A DNA stretch of 64,000 bases, taken from assembly GCA_039177645.1 (NCBI GenBank), contig JBCDFS010000003.1, positions 185,693 through 249,692 on the forward strand. Direction: 5' to 3'. This document shows positions 3,791-11,242 of the stretch, one piece after another; the stretch's first letter is position 1; each line of letters starts with the position of its first letter. The DNA comes from Pseudomonadota bacterium. GTDB lineage: Bacteria; Pseudomonadota; Alphaproteobacteria; Rhodobacterales; Rhodobacteraceae. Both the position numbers and the translations under genes were made by a program. The notes under the pieces are model-generated. The model ran no database searches and was not told the origin of the DNA. It was given only the letters and a program-made list of their open reading frames with translations.

Positions 3791-5617
3791 TCACTGGCGA
3801 AGGGGGAGTTTCTCTTTCGCCCGATGGCGACCGATCATAATCGCCGCCATCACGAGACCCACATGGCTGAAGGCCTGAGGAAAATTGCCGAGCATCTCAC
3901 CGCTCTTCGGGTCATACTCTTCCGCAAGCAGACCGAGATCGTTGGCGACCCCAAGCAGCCTTTCGAACAGGGTTTCAGCCTCTTCAATCCGGCCCATGAG
4001 AGCATAAACTTCGACGAGCCAGAACGAGCAGAGAAGAAACGCACCTTCGTGCCCCTCAAGGCCGTCATGTCCATCGGTTTGGTAGCGCAATAAAAACCCG
4101 TCCTTCATGAGTTCGCGCTCGATCGCCGCAACGGTCCCGACGATGCGTGGATCATCCGGTGGCAAGAACCCCACGAGCGGCAGCATCAGAAGGCTCGAAT
4201 CGACAGTTTTGCCACCGTAATACTGCGTGAACGTATCAAGTTCCGCATCGAAGCCCTTCGCGCAGACGTCCGCGTGGACTTCCGCGGCAAGCGCTTGAAG
4301 TTGCACCTCTTCCTCTTCCTTGCCCGATGCTTGCGCGGCCTTTGCCGCATGGTCGAACCCGACCCAGGCCATGACCTTGGAGTAGACAAAATGCTGTTTG
4401 TCGCCCCGGACTTCCCAGATCCCTTCATCTGGCAGACGCCAAGCCTCTGCCAAAAAGCCCATGACTACTTTGCGGTAGGCCTCCTGGCGGTGATGCGGGG
4501 GAAGCCCACGCCGCCTCGCAAGCGCCAGAACATCCGCGACTTCGCCGTAGACATCGAGCTGGAATTGGCCTGCCGCATCGTTTCCGACCCGAACGGGCTT
4601 TGATCCCGCAAAGCCTGGGAGCCAATCCACCTCCCACTCCGTGAGCACGCGTTCGCCGGTTAGGCTATACATGATCTGCAATTGATCAGGCGATCCAGCG
4701 ACCGCGCGGATCAGCCAGTCGCGCCAGGCTTCGGCCTCCCGGCGCAATCCGCATTCAATGAAAGCCTGCAATGTGAACGCACTGTCCCGAAGCCAGCAGA
4801 AGCGATAATCCCAATTTCGAACCCCGCCCATCTCCTCAGGCAGCGATGTCGTCGCGGCAGCGGCAATGCCGCCAGACGGCATATATGTCAACGCTTTGAG
4901 GGTGAGCAGAGACCGGTGAACAGGCTCGTAGAACTTCTTCGGCAGTTTGGGGGGCGTGACGATCCGATCTGTGAATGCGTCCCAATAGGCTCTCGTGGCC
5001 GCCAGGGCTTTCCCGGCATTGGGCGGGATTGGTGGTGTCCCGAAAGACTTGCCATATGCGAGCACGAAATCGTGCACCTCCCCTTCGGCCAGCGTGAATT
5101 GTCCAACCGTATGGAGGTCCTCGCCATGGAGGCTGACGGATGTGTCCAGAACGAAAAGGTCCGGTCCAGCAATGGCATGCCAAGCGCCCTTTCCATCATG
5201 CTCCACCCAAGGCACGGTTCGACCGTAATCCGCGCGAATACAAAGATCGCAATCCATCTCTACGCGCCCATCAAGCCCCTCGACCCGGCGGATGATGGCG
5301 GCGGGCTCATCGGGCATCGACATGAAATCGAGCACCCGAACAGTGCCGCTCGGCAACTCGTAGGTGGTTTCGAGGATCATCGTGAAGGGCTCGTAGCGCC
5401 GGCTCACCTGGGCATCGAGCGTCGGTGCGATCCGCCACCGCCCGTTTTCCCGCGAGCCCAAAAGCGCCGCGAAACAGGCGGGCGAATCGAGCCTCGGCCA
5501 GCACAGCCAATCAATTGATCCCGTGCGGGAGACCAGCGCGCAAGAGCGGCCATCTGCGATAAGCCCGTAGTCTCCAATGGAGCGGACCGGAACGTTCGTG
5601 TTCATAGGCATGTTCAT
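3791..5617 (-). CDS. Glycoside hydrolase family 15 (glucoamylase/trehalase-like)
   Basis: IGDYGLIADG, DWLCWPRLDS, TTSLPE, NWDYRFCWLRD, EGIWEVRG, LLAEEYD and GNFPQAFSH motifs. Confidence 0.93.
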   Translation of the reverse strand: MNMPMNTNVPVRSIGDYGLIADGRSCALVSRTGSIDWLCWPRLDSPACFAALLGSRENGRWRIAPTLDAQVSRRYEPFTMILETTYELPSGTVRVLDFMSMPDEPAAIIRRVEGLDGRVEMDCDLCIRADYGRTVPWVEHDGKGAWHAIAGPDLFVLDTSVSLHGEDLHTVGQFTLAEGEVHDFVLAYGKSFGTPPIPPNAGKALAATRAYWDAFTDRIVTPPKLPKKFYEPVHRSLLTLKALTYMPSGGIAAAATTSLPEEMGGVRNWDYRFCWLRDSAFTLQAFIECGLRREAEAWRDWLIRAVAGSPDQLQIMYSLTGERVLTEWEVDWLPGFAGSKPVRVGNDAAGQFQLDVYGEVADVLALARRRGLPPHHRQEAYRKVVMGFLAEAWRLPDEGIWEVRGDKQHFVYSKVMAWVGFDHAAKAAQASGKEEEEVQLQALAAEVHADVCAKGFDAELDTFTQYYGGKTVDSSLLMLPLVGFLPPDDPRIVGTVAAIERELMKDGFLLRYQTDGHDGLEGHEGAFLLCSFWLVEVYALMGRIEEAETLFERLLGVANDLGLLAEEYDPKSGEMLGNFPQAFSHVGLVMAAIMIGRHRAKEKLPLRQ

Positions 5618-5850
5618 GAGCAGCCTCGTTTTGCCGCACGTTTTCCGATGAAACTTGCGGAAGCGTTACTATCAGGCAAGTCCCTTCATTTGCGATGTCT
5701 CGGAGATGCGCAAAGTGCGATTCGCCTGCGATGGGTTAACAGAGTATGAAAGCGGGGAGTGCTAAAACGCGGTTTTTCGAGGTGGCGGCGCGGAATGACC
5801 TACAAGCCGTTGAACGAAATATATTTTCTCGGATTTCGTCCGATATGGAA

Positions 5851-5879
5851 CCGGTAGGGATCCGGTAGTGTTCTGGTAG
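5851..5879. repeat. Three direct repeats C(C/T)GGTAG at exact 11-bp period
   Basis: CCGGTAG at 5851 and 5862, CTGGTAG at 5873. Confidence 0.7.
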
Positions 5880-6281
5880 TCCTCAATCGCGGCTCAGCAT
5901 CGAAACATGCCCCGGCTCAACGCTCCGACATCCGACATGGTGACACAAGGTTGTTTCCAGTGAATTGACCGAGCGAACTCACGCTTCGCCGGATTTTTCG
6001 ACCTCGTGGGCGAAGCTCTCCGGTCGCTTCGCCATATCCGTTTCGCTGATCTGTGATCTCAGCGAACTGACCCATAGAGCCCAACTCAAACCTCAGTCAG
6101 ACCTAGCAATACTCGCGAGGCGCCTTGTTTTTAGGCGGATAGGGGCGATGACTATCGGCGCCTCGCTTGTGGCGAAGGGACACACTGCTCCAAGTCGCCC
6201 CGAACGACACGCTGAGCGCCCATTAAGGGTCAGTGAGACGGCGGTTACTTAACCCGCCCTCACACCTTCTCGTGCAGGCTC

Positions 6282-6899
6282 TCAGCCCAATGCCTTGGCG
6301 ATGTTGGCGTCCGCTTCGGCTCGGGATTTTTCGGCAGCGGCCGGATCAAAAGCGGTGCCTTCGACATACACTGTTTCGATCTTGGGAATGCCGATAAAGG
6401 TCAGGACGCTTTCGAGATAGGGCTTCAAGAAGTCCATCGACGCCATCGCGCCGCCCACATAGCCGGAAGCGCCGTAAGCTATTGCAAGATAGGCGCATTT
6501 CGGCTGCGCCAATCCGGAAAATCCAGCCGTCGGATCATAGGAAAAGGTCTTTCCGGCTCGGACGAGGTTGTCGACGTAAGCTTTCAGCACTGATGGGGTG
6601 CCAAAATTGTAGACCGGTGTCGCAATCAAGACCTCATCGGCAGATTGAAACTCTTCAATCAACGCGTCTGAGTGCGCCGCAGCTGCGTCCAGAGCAGGGG
6701 TGCGGTCTTCTGGAGCGGTGGTGAAGGCGGCCGTCGAGTCTGCATCCACGTGGGGTGTCGGTGTCTTCGCGAGGTCCCGCGTTACAATTGTGCCGCCTGA
6801 GGTCTTGCTCTTCCAAGCGTCAACAAACTTGTCGGCCAAAGCCCGGGATTGAGAGCCTTGAAAGCGTGCGCTCGCGTCAATTCGGAGGAGTGTCGGCAT
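6282..6899 (-). CDS. azoR: FMN-dependent NADH-azoreductase
   Basis: RIDASAR..GSQSR, ATPVYNFGTPSVLKAYVD, RAGKTFSY and MDFLKPYLESVLTFIGI motifs; ATG at 6899. Confidence 0.9.
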   Translation of the reverse strand: MPTLLRIDASARFQGSQSRALADKFVDAWKSKTSGGTIVTRDLAKTPTPHVDADSTAAFTTAPEDRTPALDAAAAHSDALIEEFQSADEVLIATPVYNFGTPSVLKAYVDNLVRAGKTFSYDPTAGFSGLAQPKCAYLAIAYGASGYVGGAMASMDFLKPYLESVLTFIGIPKIETVYVEGTAFDPAAAEKSRAEADANIAKALG

Positions 6900-7690
6900 C
6901 GTTGAATCTTCTCTCCACATCAGATGAAATATTGCAAATCGCGATAAACGACATTGCATCCAGGTCCAATGATATTGTCGACCAATACGATCAGTTCGGT
7001 CTTTCGTGATGCGCTCCTCATGCATTTGTCTTGGAGCAAATTCACAGCCCTAGATTTCTGAGGCGCCCTCCTGTCCGAGTGTCGGATCTCGCTCGTCCAG
7101 GAGCGCGATTTCCGGTGCTTTGGATACGGGCACCTTTGGGCCAGCGGGCTGTCGCCTCATCGCGGATGTAGGTAAAGGCCTATGATTGTAATGATCATTC
7201 TACAGGGAGAGGAATTGGTGACCGACACAGCCGACAATAGTTATGACAATACCGAAGAACTTGATTCAAGATTCGATCAGGCAAAGCAAAATCCTGCGCG
7301 GTGCCTTATGGTGAGGCGGATACGGGCAATGGCAATCCAGGCCTCGCTTGAGGGGTTGCGACACCCCGAAAAACCCCTCGCTGCGAACGGCTTAAGTCCG
7401 AGGCATGCAGGGCTCCGTCCAGTCGGCGAACCGCACGGCATTACAACAAACTGAAGACGCAAACTCTTTTTTGGGCAGGCTCTCACAGGAACCCGGCGCG
7501 ATATCTGTTCCGAAGACCCGCTGATCCCTTTCGAGAACCAGATGCGCCTTGCGCAGAGAATCTGTCGTTTGGTGCGTCGATCCGTATCACAATGCGAAAC
7601 AAGAACCGCTCAAATGTTGTGCCGTTTCCGGTAGCGTATATCGCTTCATGCCAATAATGAACAATGTGTCAGACTCTCGAAAGCGAGCGC

Positions 7691-8902
7691 ATGCCCATTC
7701 CAACGACGATACTGAATGGTTTTCTGGGTGCGGGAAAAACGACGCTCATGCAGAACCTGCTCGTGCAGGCGCGCAGCGTGCCGGACGTCACGTTGGGCAT
7801 TGTTGTCAACGAAATGAGCACACTCGATGTAGACGGCTCTGTGCTCGATACGAGTGAGGTCATTTCGCGCAGGAGCCCCCATTTCGCCTCGATCCCCGGG
7901 GGAAGCATTAGCAGCGCCGAGGGATTGCCTCGCTTTGCCGAGGCCGCACGGGGCGTCTTGGACGATGGCGCAGTCACCCATCTGCTCATCGAGACGTCAG
8001 GCAGCACGCATCCATGGCCACTTCTGAGCCAAATCAGAGCAATGCCGGAGTTGCAACTCCATGGCTTCCTGACCGTGGTCGATACCGTCGTGCTCTGGCA
8101 AGATCATGATCAAGGCCGGGCCGTCCATGGTTCTGCAAGCAAGAACCTACAAGCTGGGCGGCGCGGCGTCGCAAATCTATTGGCTGAGCAGATCATGTTT
8201 GCCAACCGTGTGCTCTTAAGCAAGAGCGACAGAGTACGGCGCGATGTGTTGCAAAAGGTCGCGGAGGCGGTGCACCCGCTGAATCCCTTTGCCGATATCC
8301 TTGCGATGCAGTGGGGTAATCTCAACCTGGAAAGCGTGCTTAATCTGCCTCTATACGACTATGCGCGTGTCGAAACACTTGGAGCGGAATTGAGCCAATG
8401 GGACAAGGATCACGGATCCTCTTCGATATCCCAACCTGAGAGTTACCAGCTTGGCAGCCGCGTCGTGCGCGACCAGCGCCCGTTTCACCCCCAGCGTCTC
8501 TGGGATGTCTATAACAAGTTCTTGGGAATTGGGATTCATCGCAGCAAGGGATTTTTCTGGCTACCGACCCGAGACAATCTCGTGCTTCTGTGGAATCAGA
8601 CCGCTGGCAGCGTTGGGCTAGAGATCGTCAATTACTGGAAAATCAGCGCACTCGAAGACGACACGCTGAACCTCTCCGCTTGGGAAAGAGAAGCGTTGCG
8701 CGAGAAGCTGACAGAAGGCCATCCAGACTTCGGCGACAGGCGCTGCCAGCTGACCGTGATTGGAGATGAGGCAGAACTCGATGCATTTGTAGAGGCGCTC
8801 GAGACGTGTTTCTGCACGAAAGCCGAGGTTTTGGCATGGCAGAACGGCGAAGACTTTGCAGATCCTTGGCCCAAGAGCGTCAAGAGCCTTAAAGTAGAGT
8901 GA
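7691..8902 (+). CDS. COG0523/CobW-family G3E P-loop GTPase (putative metallochaperone) with CxCC replaced by SxSS
   Basis: NGFLGAGKTT Walker A, VVNEMS, IETSG, LSKSD and CobW_C-like RSKGFFWL...WNQTAG...LTVIG; GGSISS at 7898-7915 where GCICC is expected. Confidence 0.88.
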   Translation: MPIPTTILNGFLGAGKTTLMQNLLVQARSVPDVTLGIVVNEMSTLDVDGSVLDTSEVISRRSPHFASIPGGSISSAEGLPRFAEAARGVLDDGAVTHLLIETSGSTHPWPLLSQIRAMPELQLHGFLTVVDTVVLWQDHDQGRAVHGSASKNLQAGRRGVANLLAEQIMFANRVLLSKSDRVRRDVLQKVAEAVHPLNPFADILAMQWGNLNLESVLNLPLYDYARVETLGAELSQWDKDHGSSSISQPESYQLGSRVVRDQRPFHPQRLWDVYNKFLGIGIHRSKGFFWLPTRDNLVLLWNQTAGSVGLEIVNYWKISALEDDTLNLSAWEREALREKLTEGHPDFGDRRCQLTVIGDEAELDAFVEALETCFCTKAEVLAWQNGEDFADPWPKSVKSLKVE

Positions 8903-8963
8903 GGCCGAGAAAGCCCTATAGATCAGTGAATTGGAGACTGTGTTTCTACGAAAATCGACTTCC

Positions 8964-9195
8964 TAAGAGTCCGATTCAAAACTCGATAAAACATCAAACA
9001 CAGCAATACATAGCGAGACGCTTTTTATGAGGCGGATGTGTGAGTTGTTCATCTAGGGCCCACTTGAGGCGAAGGATTTCTCCCAATCCTCGGCCAGCCG
9101 TCAACAGTGTCGGCACCATGCGAACGTTCGTTCTACAATCCAGCAGAGGGCAAGGACTTCGAAGCCTTTGGCAGCTTCTGTGACGATATCTCTGG
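8964..9195 (-). mobile_element. Decayed IS5-family insertion sequence remnant (transposase C-terminus and right end)
   Basis: Minus frame from 9178 reads [38 protein letters not shown]; after a further stop and frameshift, HIRL..KRLAMYCCV* (stop 8996-8994). Matches the IS5-type 'GFEVLPRRWVVERTFAW..R.RRLAKD' tail. IR-like GAGTCCGATTCAAAA at 8967-8981 is preceded by TAA. Confidence 0.75.
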
Positions 9196-9301
9196 GCGAG
9201 AAAAGCTGACCTTAGCGACAGAGAGCCTCATTCCGCTCCTGCCGCTCGGCGCTCGGCTTGCGAGCCCCAGCGCGTGCTGAGGCTCGGTGGATGGGTTTCC
9301 C

Positions 9302-9991
9302 TTAGACCGGCACCAAACGGTAGCCGCCAGGTTCGGTGACCAGGATACGGGCGTTGGAGGGATCGGGCTCGATTTTCTGGCGCAGGCGGTAGATGTGGGT
9401 CTCCAGCGTGTGGGTGGTGACACCGGCATTGTAACCCCAGACCTCGTGCAACAGGATGTCGCGCGCGACGACTTCCGAGCCGGAGCGATAGAGGAATTTG
9501 AGGATATTGGTTTCCTTCTCGGTGAGCCGGATCTTTTTCTCCTGCTCATCGAGCAGCATCTTGGCCGCGGGCTTGAACGTGTAGGGTCCCACCGCGAAGA
9601 CCGCGTCTTCGGATTGCTCGTGCTGGCGGAGTTGGGCGCGGATCCGGGCCAGAAGCACCGGGAGCTTGAACGGCTTGGCGATGTAATCGTTCGCTCCGGC
9701 ATCGAGGCCCAGGATCTGATCGCTGTCTGTCGTGTGGCCGGTGAGCATGATGACCGGCGTTTTGACGCCCTGCTTGCGGATGAGGCGGCAGACTTCGCGA
9801 CCGTCCATATCGGGGAGACCTACATCGAGCAGGATCAGGTCATGGTGCTGTTCCTTGGCCCGCGTGAGCCCGTCGCCGCCATCACCCGCCTCGAAAACGT
9901 CGAATTCCTCGGTGAGGACGAGCTGGTCGGCGAGCGCTTCCCGAAGATCGTTATCGTCATCGATCAACAGGATTTTCTTCAGTATAGTCAT
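9302..9991 (-). CDS. OmpR/PhoB-family response regulator
   Basis: ILLIDDD, LLDVGLPDMDG, GANDYIAKPF and winged-helix tail THTLETHIYRLRQKIE; ATG at 9991. Confidence 0.95.
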   Translation of the reverse strand: MTILKKILLIDDDNDLREALADQLVLTEEFDVFEAGDGGDGLTRAKEQHHDLILLDVGLPDMDGREVCRLIRKQGVKTPVIMLTGHTTDSDQILGLDAGANDYIAKPFKLPVLLARIRAQLRQHEQSEDAVFAVGPYTFKPAAKMLLDEQEKKIRLTEKETNILKFLYRSGSEVVARDILLHEVWGYNAGVTTHTLETHIYRLRQKIEPDPSNARILVTEPGGYRLVPV

Positions 9992-10150
9992 GGTTTGTCT
10001 CCCTTCCCGCGTTGAGGTGCTGGCTTTCCTTGCATCGGGCAATATTTGTGTCGCACCTCTCACGTCACTGTGTCTCCGGGGAGGCTTTTGTTTCATCGCT
10101 GCGACAAAGCGGCTAAGACCACGGGCCTGAGGGGAGGGCCGGACGGACGC

Positions 10151-11242
10151 ATGAGCCTGACACTGACACAAGCGGAGCATCTCGCGCGGGCGCGCTCCGA
10201 TCTGCGCATGGGCGTGGCGGTGGTGATTTCCAGCTCAGCCGAAGATGCGCTTGTCGTCGCCGCCGAGGCGGTCACGGGAGACCGGCTGGCCGATCTTCGC
10301 GCACGGGGCACGACCGATCTGGCGATCACCGGGCGGCGGGCGGAAACGCTAAAGGCGCGTGCCTATGACGGAGACTTGGCCCGTGTGGTCTTGCCGGGCG
10401 ACGCGAATTTGGCTTGGGTGCGTGCCTCCTCCGATCCGTCGGCAGACCTGCTCTATCCGCTGAAGGGGCCTTACATGACCCGTCGGGACGGCGCGGCGGA
10501 TCTGCACCGGGCGGCGATCGCGTTGTGCAAGCAGGCGCATCTCCTGCCCGCCGCTTTGGTGACGCCCCTCACCCGGGAGGCGGCGCAGGATCTGGTAGCG
10601 CGCGAACGGCTCAGCCGCGTCGAGACCTGCGACCTGCCGCTCCAGCGCCCCGACGCCGATATGCAGGAGATCGCCTCGGCCCGTGTGCCGCTGGAGATTT
10701 CCGAGGCCGGGCGGGTGCGGGTGTTTCGGCCCCTCGATGGCGCGGAAGAACACTATGCGGTGGAGGTTGGCGCGCCTGACCGCCAAGCGCCGGTTCTCTG
10801 TCGTCTGCACTCGGCCTGCTTTACCGGCGACCTGATCGGCAGCTTGAAATGCGATTGCGGGCACCAGCTGCGCACCGCTTTGGAGCAGATCGGCAGCGAG
10901 GGTGCGGGGGTGTTGCTCTATCTCAACCAGGAGGGCCGCGGCATCGGGCTTGCCAACAAGATGCGCGCCTATTCACTCCAGGATCAGGGCTTCGATACGG
11001 TCGAGGCCAATCACCGGCTCGGCTTCGAGGACGATGAGCGAGACTTTCGGATCGGTGCCAATATGCTGCGGCGCATGGGCTTTTCGCAGGTGCGGCTTAT
11101 GACCAACAATCCTGCGAAGCTTGAGATGATGGCGGGTTGCGGCCTCGCCGTCGCCGAGCGTGTGCCGCTCAAGGTCGGGCGCGGGACGCATAACGACCAA
11201 TATCTCCAGACCAAGGCCAAGAAGAGCGGCCATCTGCTTTGA
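10151..11242 (+). CDS. ribA: GTP cyclohydrolase II
   Basis: RLHSACFTGDLIGSLKCDCG, QEGRGIGL, DERDF and MTNNPAK motifs; alphaproteobacterial N-terminal extension. Confidence 0.93.
   Translation: MSLTLTQAEHLARARSDLRMGVAVVISSSAEDALVVAAEAVTGDRLADLRARGTTDLAITGRRAETLKARAYDGDLARVVLPGDANLAWVRASSDPSADLLYPLKGPYMTRRDGAADLHRAAIALCKQAHLLPAALVTPLTREAAQDLVARERLSRVETCDLPLQRPDADMQEIASARVPLEISEAGRVRVFRPLDGAEEHYAVEVGAPDRQAPVLCRLHSACFTGDLIGSLKCDCGHQLRTALEQIGSEGAGVLLYLNQEGRGIGLANKMRAYSLQDQGFDTVEANHRLGFEDDERDFRIGANMLRRMGFSQVRLMTNNPAKLEMMAGCGLAVAERVPLKVGRGTHNDQYLQTKAKKSGHLL

Follow-up and report, generated by a model that had tools for sequence, protein, structure and literature searches.

The gene and its altered metal-binding motif

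The window analysed here, by which we mean the whole 64-kb stretch of DNA taken from contig JBCDFS010000003.1 of a Rhodobacteraceae metagenome-assembled genome (MAG), carries on its plus strand a gene for a COG0523/CobW-type GTPase in which the three cysteines of the CxCC metal-binding motif are replaced by serines. The gene is located between an azoR-like flavodoxin-fold gene (6282-7025, minus strand) and a response-regulator gene. Its open reading frame (ORF) is intact, starting with an ATG at 7691 and ending with a TGA at 8900-8902; a second in-frame ATG is present upstream, at 7664, and the orthologues begin at the residues MPIP, corresponding to 7691. The codons at 7901-7915, GGA AGC ATT AGC AGC, encode G71-S72-I73-S74-S75. 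When the protein was compared with PDB chains using phmmer, its segment IPGGSISSAEG paired with LTNGCICCSRS of E. coli YjiA (1nij), and the serines therefore sit at exactly the three Cys positions. A preliminary description of the locus, made from the DNA alone, had reported this CxCC-to-SxSS change in an intact COG0523 gene, and the ORF reading and the YjiA alignment bear it out. It had also reported intact GTPase motifs, an intact CobW_C domain and no His-rich tract in the 403-aa protein, all of which were found again in the sequence and by Pfam.

The protein matched PF02492 (cobW) with 84.3 bits, against a cutoff of 20.7, in addition to the C-terminal domain listed in Table 1. Among the features that define the COG0523/CobW superfamily, the G-domain motifs and a CobW_C domain with RxKG are present and CxCC is absent. 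An AlphaFold2 (AF2) model based on an 82-sequence alignment contained two domains (predicted local distance difference test score, pLDDT, 91.6; predicted TM-score, pTM, 0.87), and a fold search of this model against the PDB returned YjiA as the best match; UreG and HypB came next and matched the G domain. The best NCBIfam match was to the ZigA model (NF038288), with residues 3-393 aligning onto model positions 1-389 at 191.4 bits, under the cutoff of 600. The models for CobW proper (TIGR02475; 74.4 bits, cutoff 332), Mrf (NF047431; 68.3 bits, cutoff 375, a partial match over residues 118-393) and YjiA-type proteins (NF008578; 37.6 bits, cutoff 361) also scored under their cutoffs. CobW proper (cobalt delivery, B12) was rejected as an assignment on the basis of the TIGR02475 score, of the neighbouring genes (azoR-like, response regulator and ribA-like) and of an Rfam scan of 5500-9500, which gave no matches at E<=1 and thus no riboswitch.

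The CxCC motif supplies three thiolates to the high-affinity Zn site and has been called "family-defining and invariant" (PMC13001444). In ZigA, a CICC-to-SISS triple mutation abolishes both high-affinity Zn binding and Zn-stimulated GTPase activity (PMC11672702), and the natural motif of the window protein is identical to that of this laboratory null mutant. That thiol metal binding has been lost at the canonical site, one of the options raised in the preliminary description, follows from the sequence together with the ZigA SISS mutant (PMC11672702); unlike in ZigA, binding of Zn at this site would be impossible. The RxKG "arginine finger" of the C-terminal domain, which is required for GTP hydrolysis in ZigA and MigC (PMC13001444), is retained.

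Table 1. Positions in the window of the COG0523-type gene, its motifs and an upstream half-site
Feature	Position	Strand	Basis or remark
CDS (coding sequence), two-domain COG0523/CobW-type GTPase, 403 aa (motif-predicted)	7691..8902, stop included	+	ORF reading, Pfam, AF2 model
G1/Walker A GFLGAGKTT, residues 10-18	7718..7744	+	G10, G13, G15, K16 invariant in 82-sequence alignment
G-S-I-S-S replacing the canonical G-C-x-C-C metal site, residues 71-75	7901..7915	+	alignment to YjiA GCICC
G3/Walker B region ETSGSTHP, residues 101-108	7991..8014 (ETSG 7991-8002)	+	carries clade-specific His107
G4 S-K-S-D, NKxD equivalent, residues 177-180	8219..8230	+	K178, D180 nearly invariant
CobW_C C-terminal domain, residues 256-373	8456..8809	+	PF07683, 49.6 bits vs cutoff 22
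R-S-K-G, RxKG "arginine finger", residues 284-287	8540..8551	+	R284, K286, G287 invariant in 82 sequences
C-terminal-domain cysteines C352 (8744-8746), C373 (8807-8809), C375 (8813-8815)	8744..8815	+	C352, C375 gained in the Cys-less clade
Degenerate Zur-box-like half-site GAAACGGCACAACAT, 62 nt upstream of the ATG	7614..7628	-	position weight matrix score 10.2

The Cys-less clade and its sequence constraint

All of the 120 best homologues (60-81% identity) were Cys-free at the motif, with the consensus G-S-[IMLV]-S-[SGAT]; they came from Ruegeria, Yoonia, Cognatishimia, Actibacterium, Paracoccus, Martelella and many marine MAGs. CxCC was likewise missing from about 20 additional full-length clusters of 33-48% identity, which emerged when 1.84 billion representatives were searched exhaustively with phmmer; the matches under about 33% identity were ZigA-like proteins with NGCICC. 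A midpoint-rooted neighbour-joining tree was built from 101 full-length representatives, and it grouped the Cys-less sequences into a single clade beside the ZigA-like CxCC proteins. The clade includes sequences from Rhodobacteraceae, Obesumbacterium (O. proteus WP_061555287.1), Klebsiella plasmids, Prosthecobacter (a MAG) and Chthoniobacterales (MAGs). On its deep branches the former motif reads SISS, SLCS, SIHS, SIAS, SASG, TLSS, TLSG, AISA, AAGD or SVGG, so that across the clade the three former Cys positions vary, being occupied by S/T/A, then S/G/H/C/D, then S/G/A/D. Since the motif is variable and no ligand set is shared clade-wide, this pattern argues for loss of the CxCC site and not for its conversion into a conserved O-donor site. 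The switch to a hard O-donor metal, as worded in the preliminary description, does not survive this comparison, because the variability of the three positions is unlike that of a rebuilt ligand set.

No description of a CxCC-less, GTPase-intact COG0523 clade was found in the literature searched, an earlier mention being possible. CxCC has been used as an inclusion criterion for COG0523 surveys (PMC2770081, PMC10642216), and poor alignment has been the reason for discarding sequences without it (PMC10642216). Surveys of this kind would therefore have eliminated a natural Cys-less clade before analysis.

Orthologue pairs with dS<1 gave dN/dS values of 0.11-0.38, and pairs involving the window gene, for which dS was saturated, gave values <0.15. 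The window protein was off consensus at 2 of the 166 columns that are >=95% conserved in the clade, compared with a mean of 1.4, and up to 5, for its relatives. Among 39 orthologues, wherever Ser was present at the three sites it was encoded by AGC or AGT and never by TCN, a pattern consistent with one TGY-to-AGY change and uninterrupted constraint since then. The preliminary description was correct that all three Ser codons of the window gene are AGC, but this is weak evidence compared with the AGY-only pattern: AGC is the majority Ser codon (19 of 31 in the window gene and 53% across the orthologues), and the triple AGC, tried as a sign of recent Cys-to-Ser conversion, was not significant alone. 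The same description had favoured a genuine subfamily over decay and had proposed to check whether the closest homologues retain CxCC and whether selection is relaxed. With CxCC retained in 0 of the 120 homologues, and with no relaxation evident in the dN/dS values or the conserved columns, that view is upheld by the clade-wide absence of CxCC and by purifying selection. As judged from the sequences, this is a real and old subfamily under purifying selection and the product of neither drift nor artefact.

We compared 48 close and 14 distant Cys-less members with 20 canonical proteins, residue by residue. G10, G13, G15, K16, E101, G104, P108, K178, D180, R284, K286 and G287 were invariant or nearly so in Cys-less and canonical proteins alike. 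By contrast, position 107, which lies in STGxSEP and is Glu in 20 of the 20 ZigA-like proteins, is His in all 48 close members and in 8 of the 14 distant ones. Further replacements, given as ZigA-like to Cys-less, were Asn to Gly or Ala at position 70 (NGCxCC), Tyr to His at 97, Ile to Ser at 105, Asn to Asp at 46 and Asn to Ser or Thr at 177 (NKxD). Two positions had become Cys: position 352, which is Gln in ZigA-like proteins (Gln or Asn in canonical ones), in 47 of 48 close and 7 of 14 distant members, and position 375, Leu in ZigA-like proteins, in 48 of 48 close and 13 of 14 distant members (61/62). The PETEEY linker motif of ZigA is weakened in the Cys-less clade. The comparison shows that residues tied to the canonical site (N70, E107 and the PETEEY linker) changed alongside the three cysteines. 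We take position 107 to correspond to the metal-binding Cys that follows Walker B (ENVGNLVCP) in HypB. The changes E107H, Q352C and L375C had escaped the preliminary description, as had the Zur link of the orthologues, their 72-aa partner and the missing Zur box and altered context of the window copy, which are described below.

Orthologue loci, Zur boxes and the 72-aa partner

The context of the gene was analyzed in 40 orthologue loci. The palindrome GTTAC-N5-TAACA was located 26-32 nt before the ATG, a fixed spacing, in 17 of them and <=300 nt away in 23, whereas such a Zur box is expected by chance in about 5e-4 per locus. It matches the Paracoccus denitrificans Zur operator GTAAYGTAATAACAT, which was confirmed in an electrophoretic mobility shift assay (EMSA) (PMC5387054 Table 7). 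About a dozen loci possess a convergent downstream operon whose products are an SBF-family transporter and a Pyr_redox_3 flavoprotein bearing a Cys-rich tail, and in several loci a strong Zur-box match is located at the upstream end of this operon; other loci contain DUF1826, or Fur-family (Zur) and znuB-like genes. One such flavoprotein gene (locus L001, 8661-9800, minus strand; homologues in about 12 loci) encodes a Cys-rich tail that ends ...DDLTCCDDDKCLC, and a similar flavoprotein adjoins the clade member of Prosthecobacter (locus L089).

In P. denitrificans DSM 413 (locus L028, 4143-7206), an apparent operon consists of a SnoaL-like gene, hisI, a ribD-type zinc deaminase gene, a 72-aa gene and the Cys-less COG0523 gene. 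This cluster is divergent from pden1338, a Zur-regulated canonical COG0523 gene, and their common intergenic region holds the published Zur box, which was found exactly. In O. proteus, a perfect enterobacterial Zur box is followed by folE2, a gamma-carbonic anhydrase (gamma-CA) gene, the Cys-less COG0523 gene and a pyrC2-type amidohydrolase gene. Chthoniobacterales have three COG0523 genes in a row, then a WD40 gene, then znuA, znuC and znuB, while in Prosthecobacter the clade gene is accompanied by two other COG0523 genes, hisI, the flavoprotein gene and a FeoB-like gene. The Rhodobacteraceae loci are mostly without a folE2-type operon. Taken together, these loci show that the orthologues usually lie behind a predicted Zur operator or inside zinc-starvation islands, near canonical CxCC paralogues and zinc-independent paralogues (FolE2, PyrC2, gamma-CA, DksA2 and HisI).

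Two near-identical copies with the motif D-S-I-S-S are carried by the hypervirulence-type K. pneumoniae IncHI1B/IncFIB iuc+ plasmid NZ_CP104316.1 (L090 6989-8188 and L091 21060-22259). One of them heads an operon containing dksA, folE2, a carbonate dehydratase (gamma-CA) gene, a thrS-like gene, a dihydroorotase (pyrC-like) gene and hemB, and this operon is divergent from a gene annotated only as "transcriptional repressor". A canonical zigA-hisI pair is found near the Cys-less copies, and the sequence TATTATTGCAACTTGATTGCATTAAC, common to the upstream regions of both, is not a classical Zur box. Of the two copies on this pLVPK-like plasmid, one is part of a zinc-starvation island, and the other is separated by a few kb from the genes for aerobactin (iuc), with iucA/B nearby; a Zur-regulated cluster had already been marked on pLVPK by Haas et al. 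2009 (PMC2770081). The gene was present at >=95% nucleotide identity in 691 plasmid records, 656 from Klebsiella, 33 from Escherichia and 2 from Enterobacter.

A gene for a 72-aa protein directly adjoins the Cys-less COG0523 gene in at least 18 of the 40 loci, and degenerate remnants of it were seen in three more; the tight linkage is a feature of marine alpha-proteobacteria. It is located either upstream, where it is translationally coupled (Paracoccus, Tritonibacter), or immediately downstream, in convergent or co-directional orientation; examples are found in L015 (7219-7434, minus strand), L028 (5757-5972, plus strand) and L031 (5777-5998, plus strand). The family sequence is MSFVPTTYEDWKHCITVKCDIPLT...FIDRWGxAHHARTxxWF, in which W11, H13, C14, C19, G51, W61 and F62 are invariant and H54 is nearly so, and the conserved residues fit a C2H2-type site. 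The protein, annotated only as "hypothetical", is predicted to form a four-helix bundle (pLDDT 89.5). No relatives were found in Pfam or NCBIfam, and a PDB fold search gave nothing below E=6. The gene was not found in about half of the Rhodobacteraceae loci or in the gamma-proteobacterial and verrucomicrobial loci inspected.

Candidate functions and the setting of the window copy

On balance, we lean towards the view that the window protein is a functional member of a distinct and old COG0523 clade that derives from the ZigA-like lineage, has lost CxCC and would act as a zinc-independent "C-minus" paralogue. Such a protein would cycle GTP by means of the arginine finger of its own C-terminal domain but, unlike ZigA and MigC, would be neither activated nor gated by Zn(II), and it would neither hold Zn nor hand it over at the canonical site. 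Since Zn could not be held there, the protein would carry out, in zinc-starved cells, the metal-independent part of the COG0523 job, namely GTP-dependent binding or remodelling of a client. Mycobacterial Mrf provides a precedent, and the logic is parallel to that of the paralogues of ribosomal proteins and of DksA (DksA2) that belong to Zur regulons and are Cys-less.

Several known systems can be compared with the clade. ZigA (Acinetobacter baumannii, Pseudomonas and others), its sister group in the tree, shares the domain order from end to end, the VN(D/E)MS switch-I, ExxG, (N/S)KxD, CobW_C and RxKG, and orthologues of both are Zur-regulated, those of the window protein as predicted from their Zur boxes; the window protein differs from it in having SxSS for CxCC, His for the invariant Glu of STGxSEP and a weak PETEEY. 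Mrf, also a COG0523 protein of a Zur regulon, is the nearest functional precedent for a metal-free member: it is proposed to work in a zinc-free state, with protein/ribosome binding and not metal delivery as its task (PMC7431043), but next to the clade members no gene for an mpy-like hibernation factor was observed. YjiA/YeiR (1nij, 4ixm, 4ixn) share the two-domain fold, and YjiA, which led the PDB matches in sequence as well as in fold, also has a non-NKxD G4 (TKTD). However, YjiA is about 18% identical to the window protein, which exceeds it in length by about 85 residues and has a long linker, and YjiA possesses CxCC and binds Zn, Co and Ni. In the "C-minus" paralogues L31/L36 C- and DksA2, Zn-ligand cysteines were likewise lost while fold and function were kept under a Zur-repressed promoter, and on the Klebsiella plasmid the Cys-less COG0523 gene heads an operon containing dksA2; those proteins lost a structural Zn site, whereas the site lost by the clade is presumed to be functional, serving a chaperone for cargo or regulation. 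Finally, Rv0106, the one case with a non-canonical motif (CxSC) mentioned in the literature searched, is a Zur-regulated COG0523 relative, but unlike the clade, which keeps all of the GTPase motifs, it is missing GTPase motifs, among them Walker A, and was judged a non-GTPase (Haas et al. 2009, PMC2770081).

A number of points weigh against a zinc-independent paralogue. We infer GTPase activity, lack of metal binding and client identity for every member of the clade. The clade-specific His97, His107, Cys352, Cys373 and Cys375 could form a new metal site, in which case "metal-independent" would be wrong. The tree that defines the clade is a midpoint-rooted neighbour-joining tree of representatives only, short of a rigorous phylogeny. 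In P. denitrificans, Pden_1333-1337, locus tags that were mapped by position only, are absent from the published lists of genes induced by zinc depletion (PMC5387054). Lastly, a position weight matrix (PWM) scan did not reveal any convincing Zur box at the window copy.

Two other functions were considered. It is possible, though in our estimation improbable, that the protein is a chaperone for an alternative metal, using Ser72, Ser74 and Ser75 together with His107, His97 and Asp46 as harder ligands in place of the thiolates and supplying the zinc-independent products of adjoining genes, FolE2, PyrC2, gamma-CA or HemB, with Mn(II), Fe(II) or Mg(II). Its gene shares operons with those for FolE2, gamma-CA, PyrC2 and DksA2 in Obesumbacterium and on the Klebsiella plasmids, and the changes E107 to His, Y97 to His and N46 to Asp accompany the loss of the cysteines and are fixed in the close clade. 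However, no candidate ligand is kept clade-wide, as the deep motifs AAGD, TLSG, AISA and SVGG and the retention of His107 in only 8 of 14 distant members illustrate; serine hydroxyls are poor ligands for transition metals; and the folE2-type operon is mostly missing from the Rhodobacteraceae loci.

Somewhat more doubtful still is a relocated or split metal site, in which zinc would be bound by C352, C373 and C375, or in trans by the 72-aa protein, and zinc chaperoning would continue. In a split metallochaperone of this kind, which we regard as unlikely to the same degree, the 72-aa protein and/or the three C-terminal cysteines would carry the metal and the GTPase would serve only as a nucleotide-driven switch. 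The gain of C352 and C375 is clade-specific, with C375 present in nearly every member, and the 72-aa gene, whose conserved residues suit a C2H2-type site, is a frequent neighbour that is translationally coupled in two genera. By contrast, C352 occurs in only half of the distant members, and the partner is missing from the window as well as from the partner-free loci listed above, so that it is not essential to the function of the clade. If true, a split metallochaperone would mean that marine Rhodobacteraceae deliver metal in a nucleotide-dependent way through a novel architecture, of which hypervirulent Klebsiella plasmids would carry a form that lacks the partner.

Returning to the favoured zinc-independent paralogue, the clade would be a natural counterpart of the SISS-null ZigA, yet one that is under selection, keeps its GTPase machinery and is tied to Zur regulons in at least three phyla. 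It allows one to ask what the COG0523 GTPase cycle does besides zinc binding, candidate roles being client recognition, remodelling, ribosome association and partnership with canonical paralogues, and the members on Klebsiella virulence plasmids give the clade medical reach. The interest attaches to the clade and not to the window locus, which holds an out-of-context copy in a marine MAG.

The setting of the window copy differs from that of its orthologues. None of ten window neighbours (the azoR-like, response-regulator, ribA-like and GH15 genes among them) was found by tblastn in the 40 orthologue loci; no conclusion on function can therefore be drawn from the window neighbours, one of which, at about 10.2-11.2 kb, encodes a Zn-dependent GTP cyclohydrolase II. 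The GC content is 0.53-0.57 over about 5400-9300, compared with 0.61-0.69 immediately downstream, and together with the absent synteny this suggests that the segment from azoR to the COG0523 gene was relocated or acquired. No 72-aa partner gene and no second COG0523 gene were found anywhere in the 64-kb window. The PWM was built from EMSA-verified P. denitrificans sites, and real sites score 21.6-24.2. By this measure the half-site at 7614-7628, which ranks fifth in the window and is non-palindromic, was rejected as a Zur operator, as was a degenerate match at 7238-7252. A scan for sigma-70 promoters and terminators gave nothing better than shuffled sequence. The window sequence was found whole in one independent marine metagenome run, and the runs holding it are all DNA. 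With no good Zur box, partner gene or shared synteny, the window copy is probably no longer zinc-regulated; it would thus be an intact, conserved clade member that has moved out of its usual regulatory setting. That it is instead a case of strain-specific drift, a decaying pseudogene or a sequencing or assembly artefact is very improbable: its unusual setting, within a stretch of lower GC that has a repeated element at its flanks, is what one might expect of such a copy, but the ORF is intact, every homologue down to 33% identity lacks CxCC, dN/dS is well <1, the conserved columns are nearly all kept and an independent run contains the whole sequence.

A few further features were noted around the gene. 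Two direct copies of an intergenic element, at 6115-6183 and 7296-7364, are 74% identical over 69 nt and flank the azoR-like gene, with weaker similarity extending around them (about 5930-6300 and 7110-7500). No further copy of the element occurs elsewhere in the window or among the orthologue loci, and Rfam gave no match to it. It may represent a small mobile or repetitive element, or else the copies could be paired, related regulatory or small RNA regions. Downstream, the GTP cyclohydrolase II (RibA) domain of a 398-aa ORF (10046-11242, plus strand) is confined to residues 210-374, and Pfam (E<=1e-5) recognized nothing in the N-terminal part of about 200 aa, which might be a RibB-like domain in a degenerate state or reflect a mis-called start. 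The nearness of this ORF to the COG0523 gene is not conserved in relatives. The intergenic region between azoR and the COG0523 gene also contains a near-perfect palindrome, ATGATTGTAATGATCAT (TGA-N9-TCA), at 7182-7198, which we take to resemble the iron-responsive (RirA/IRO-type) operators of alpha-proteobacteria.

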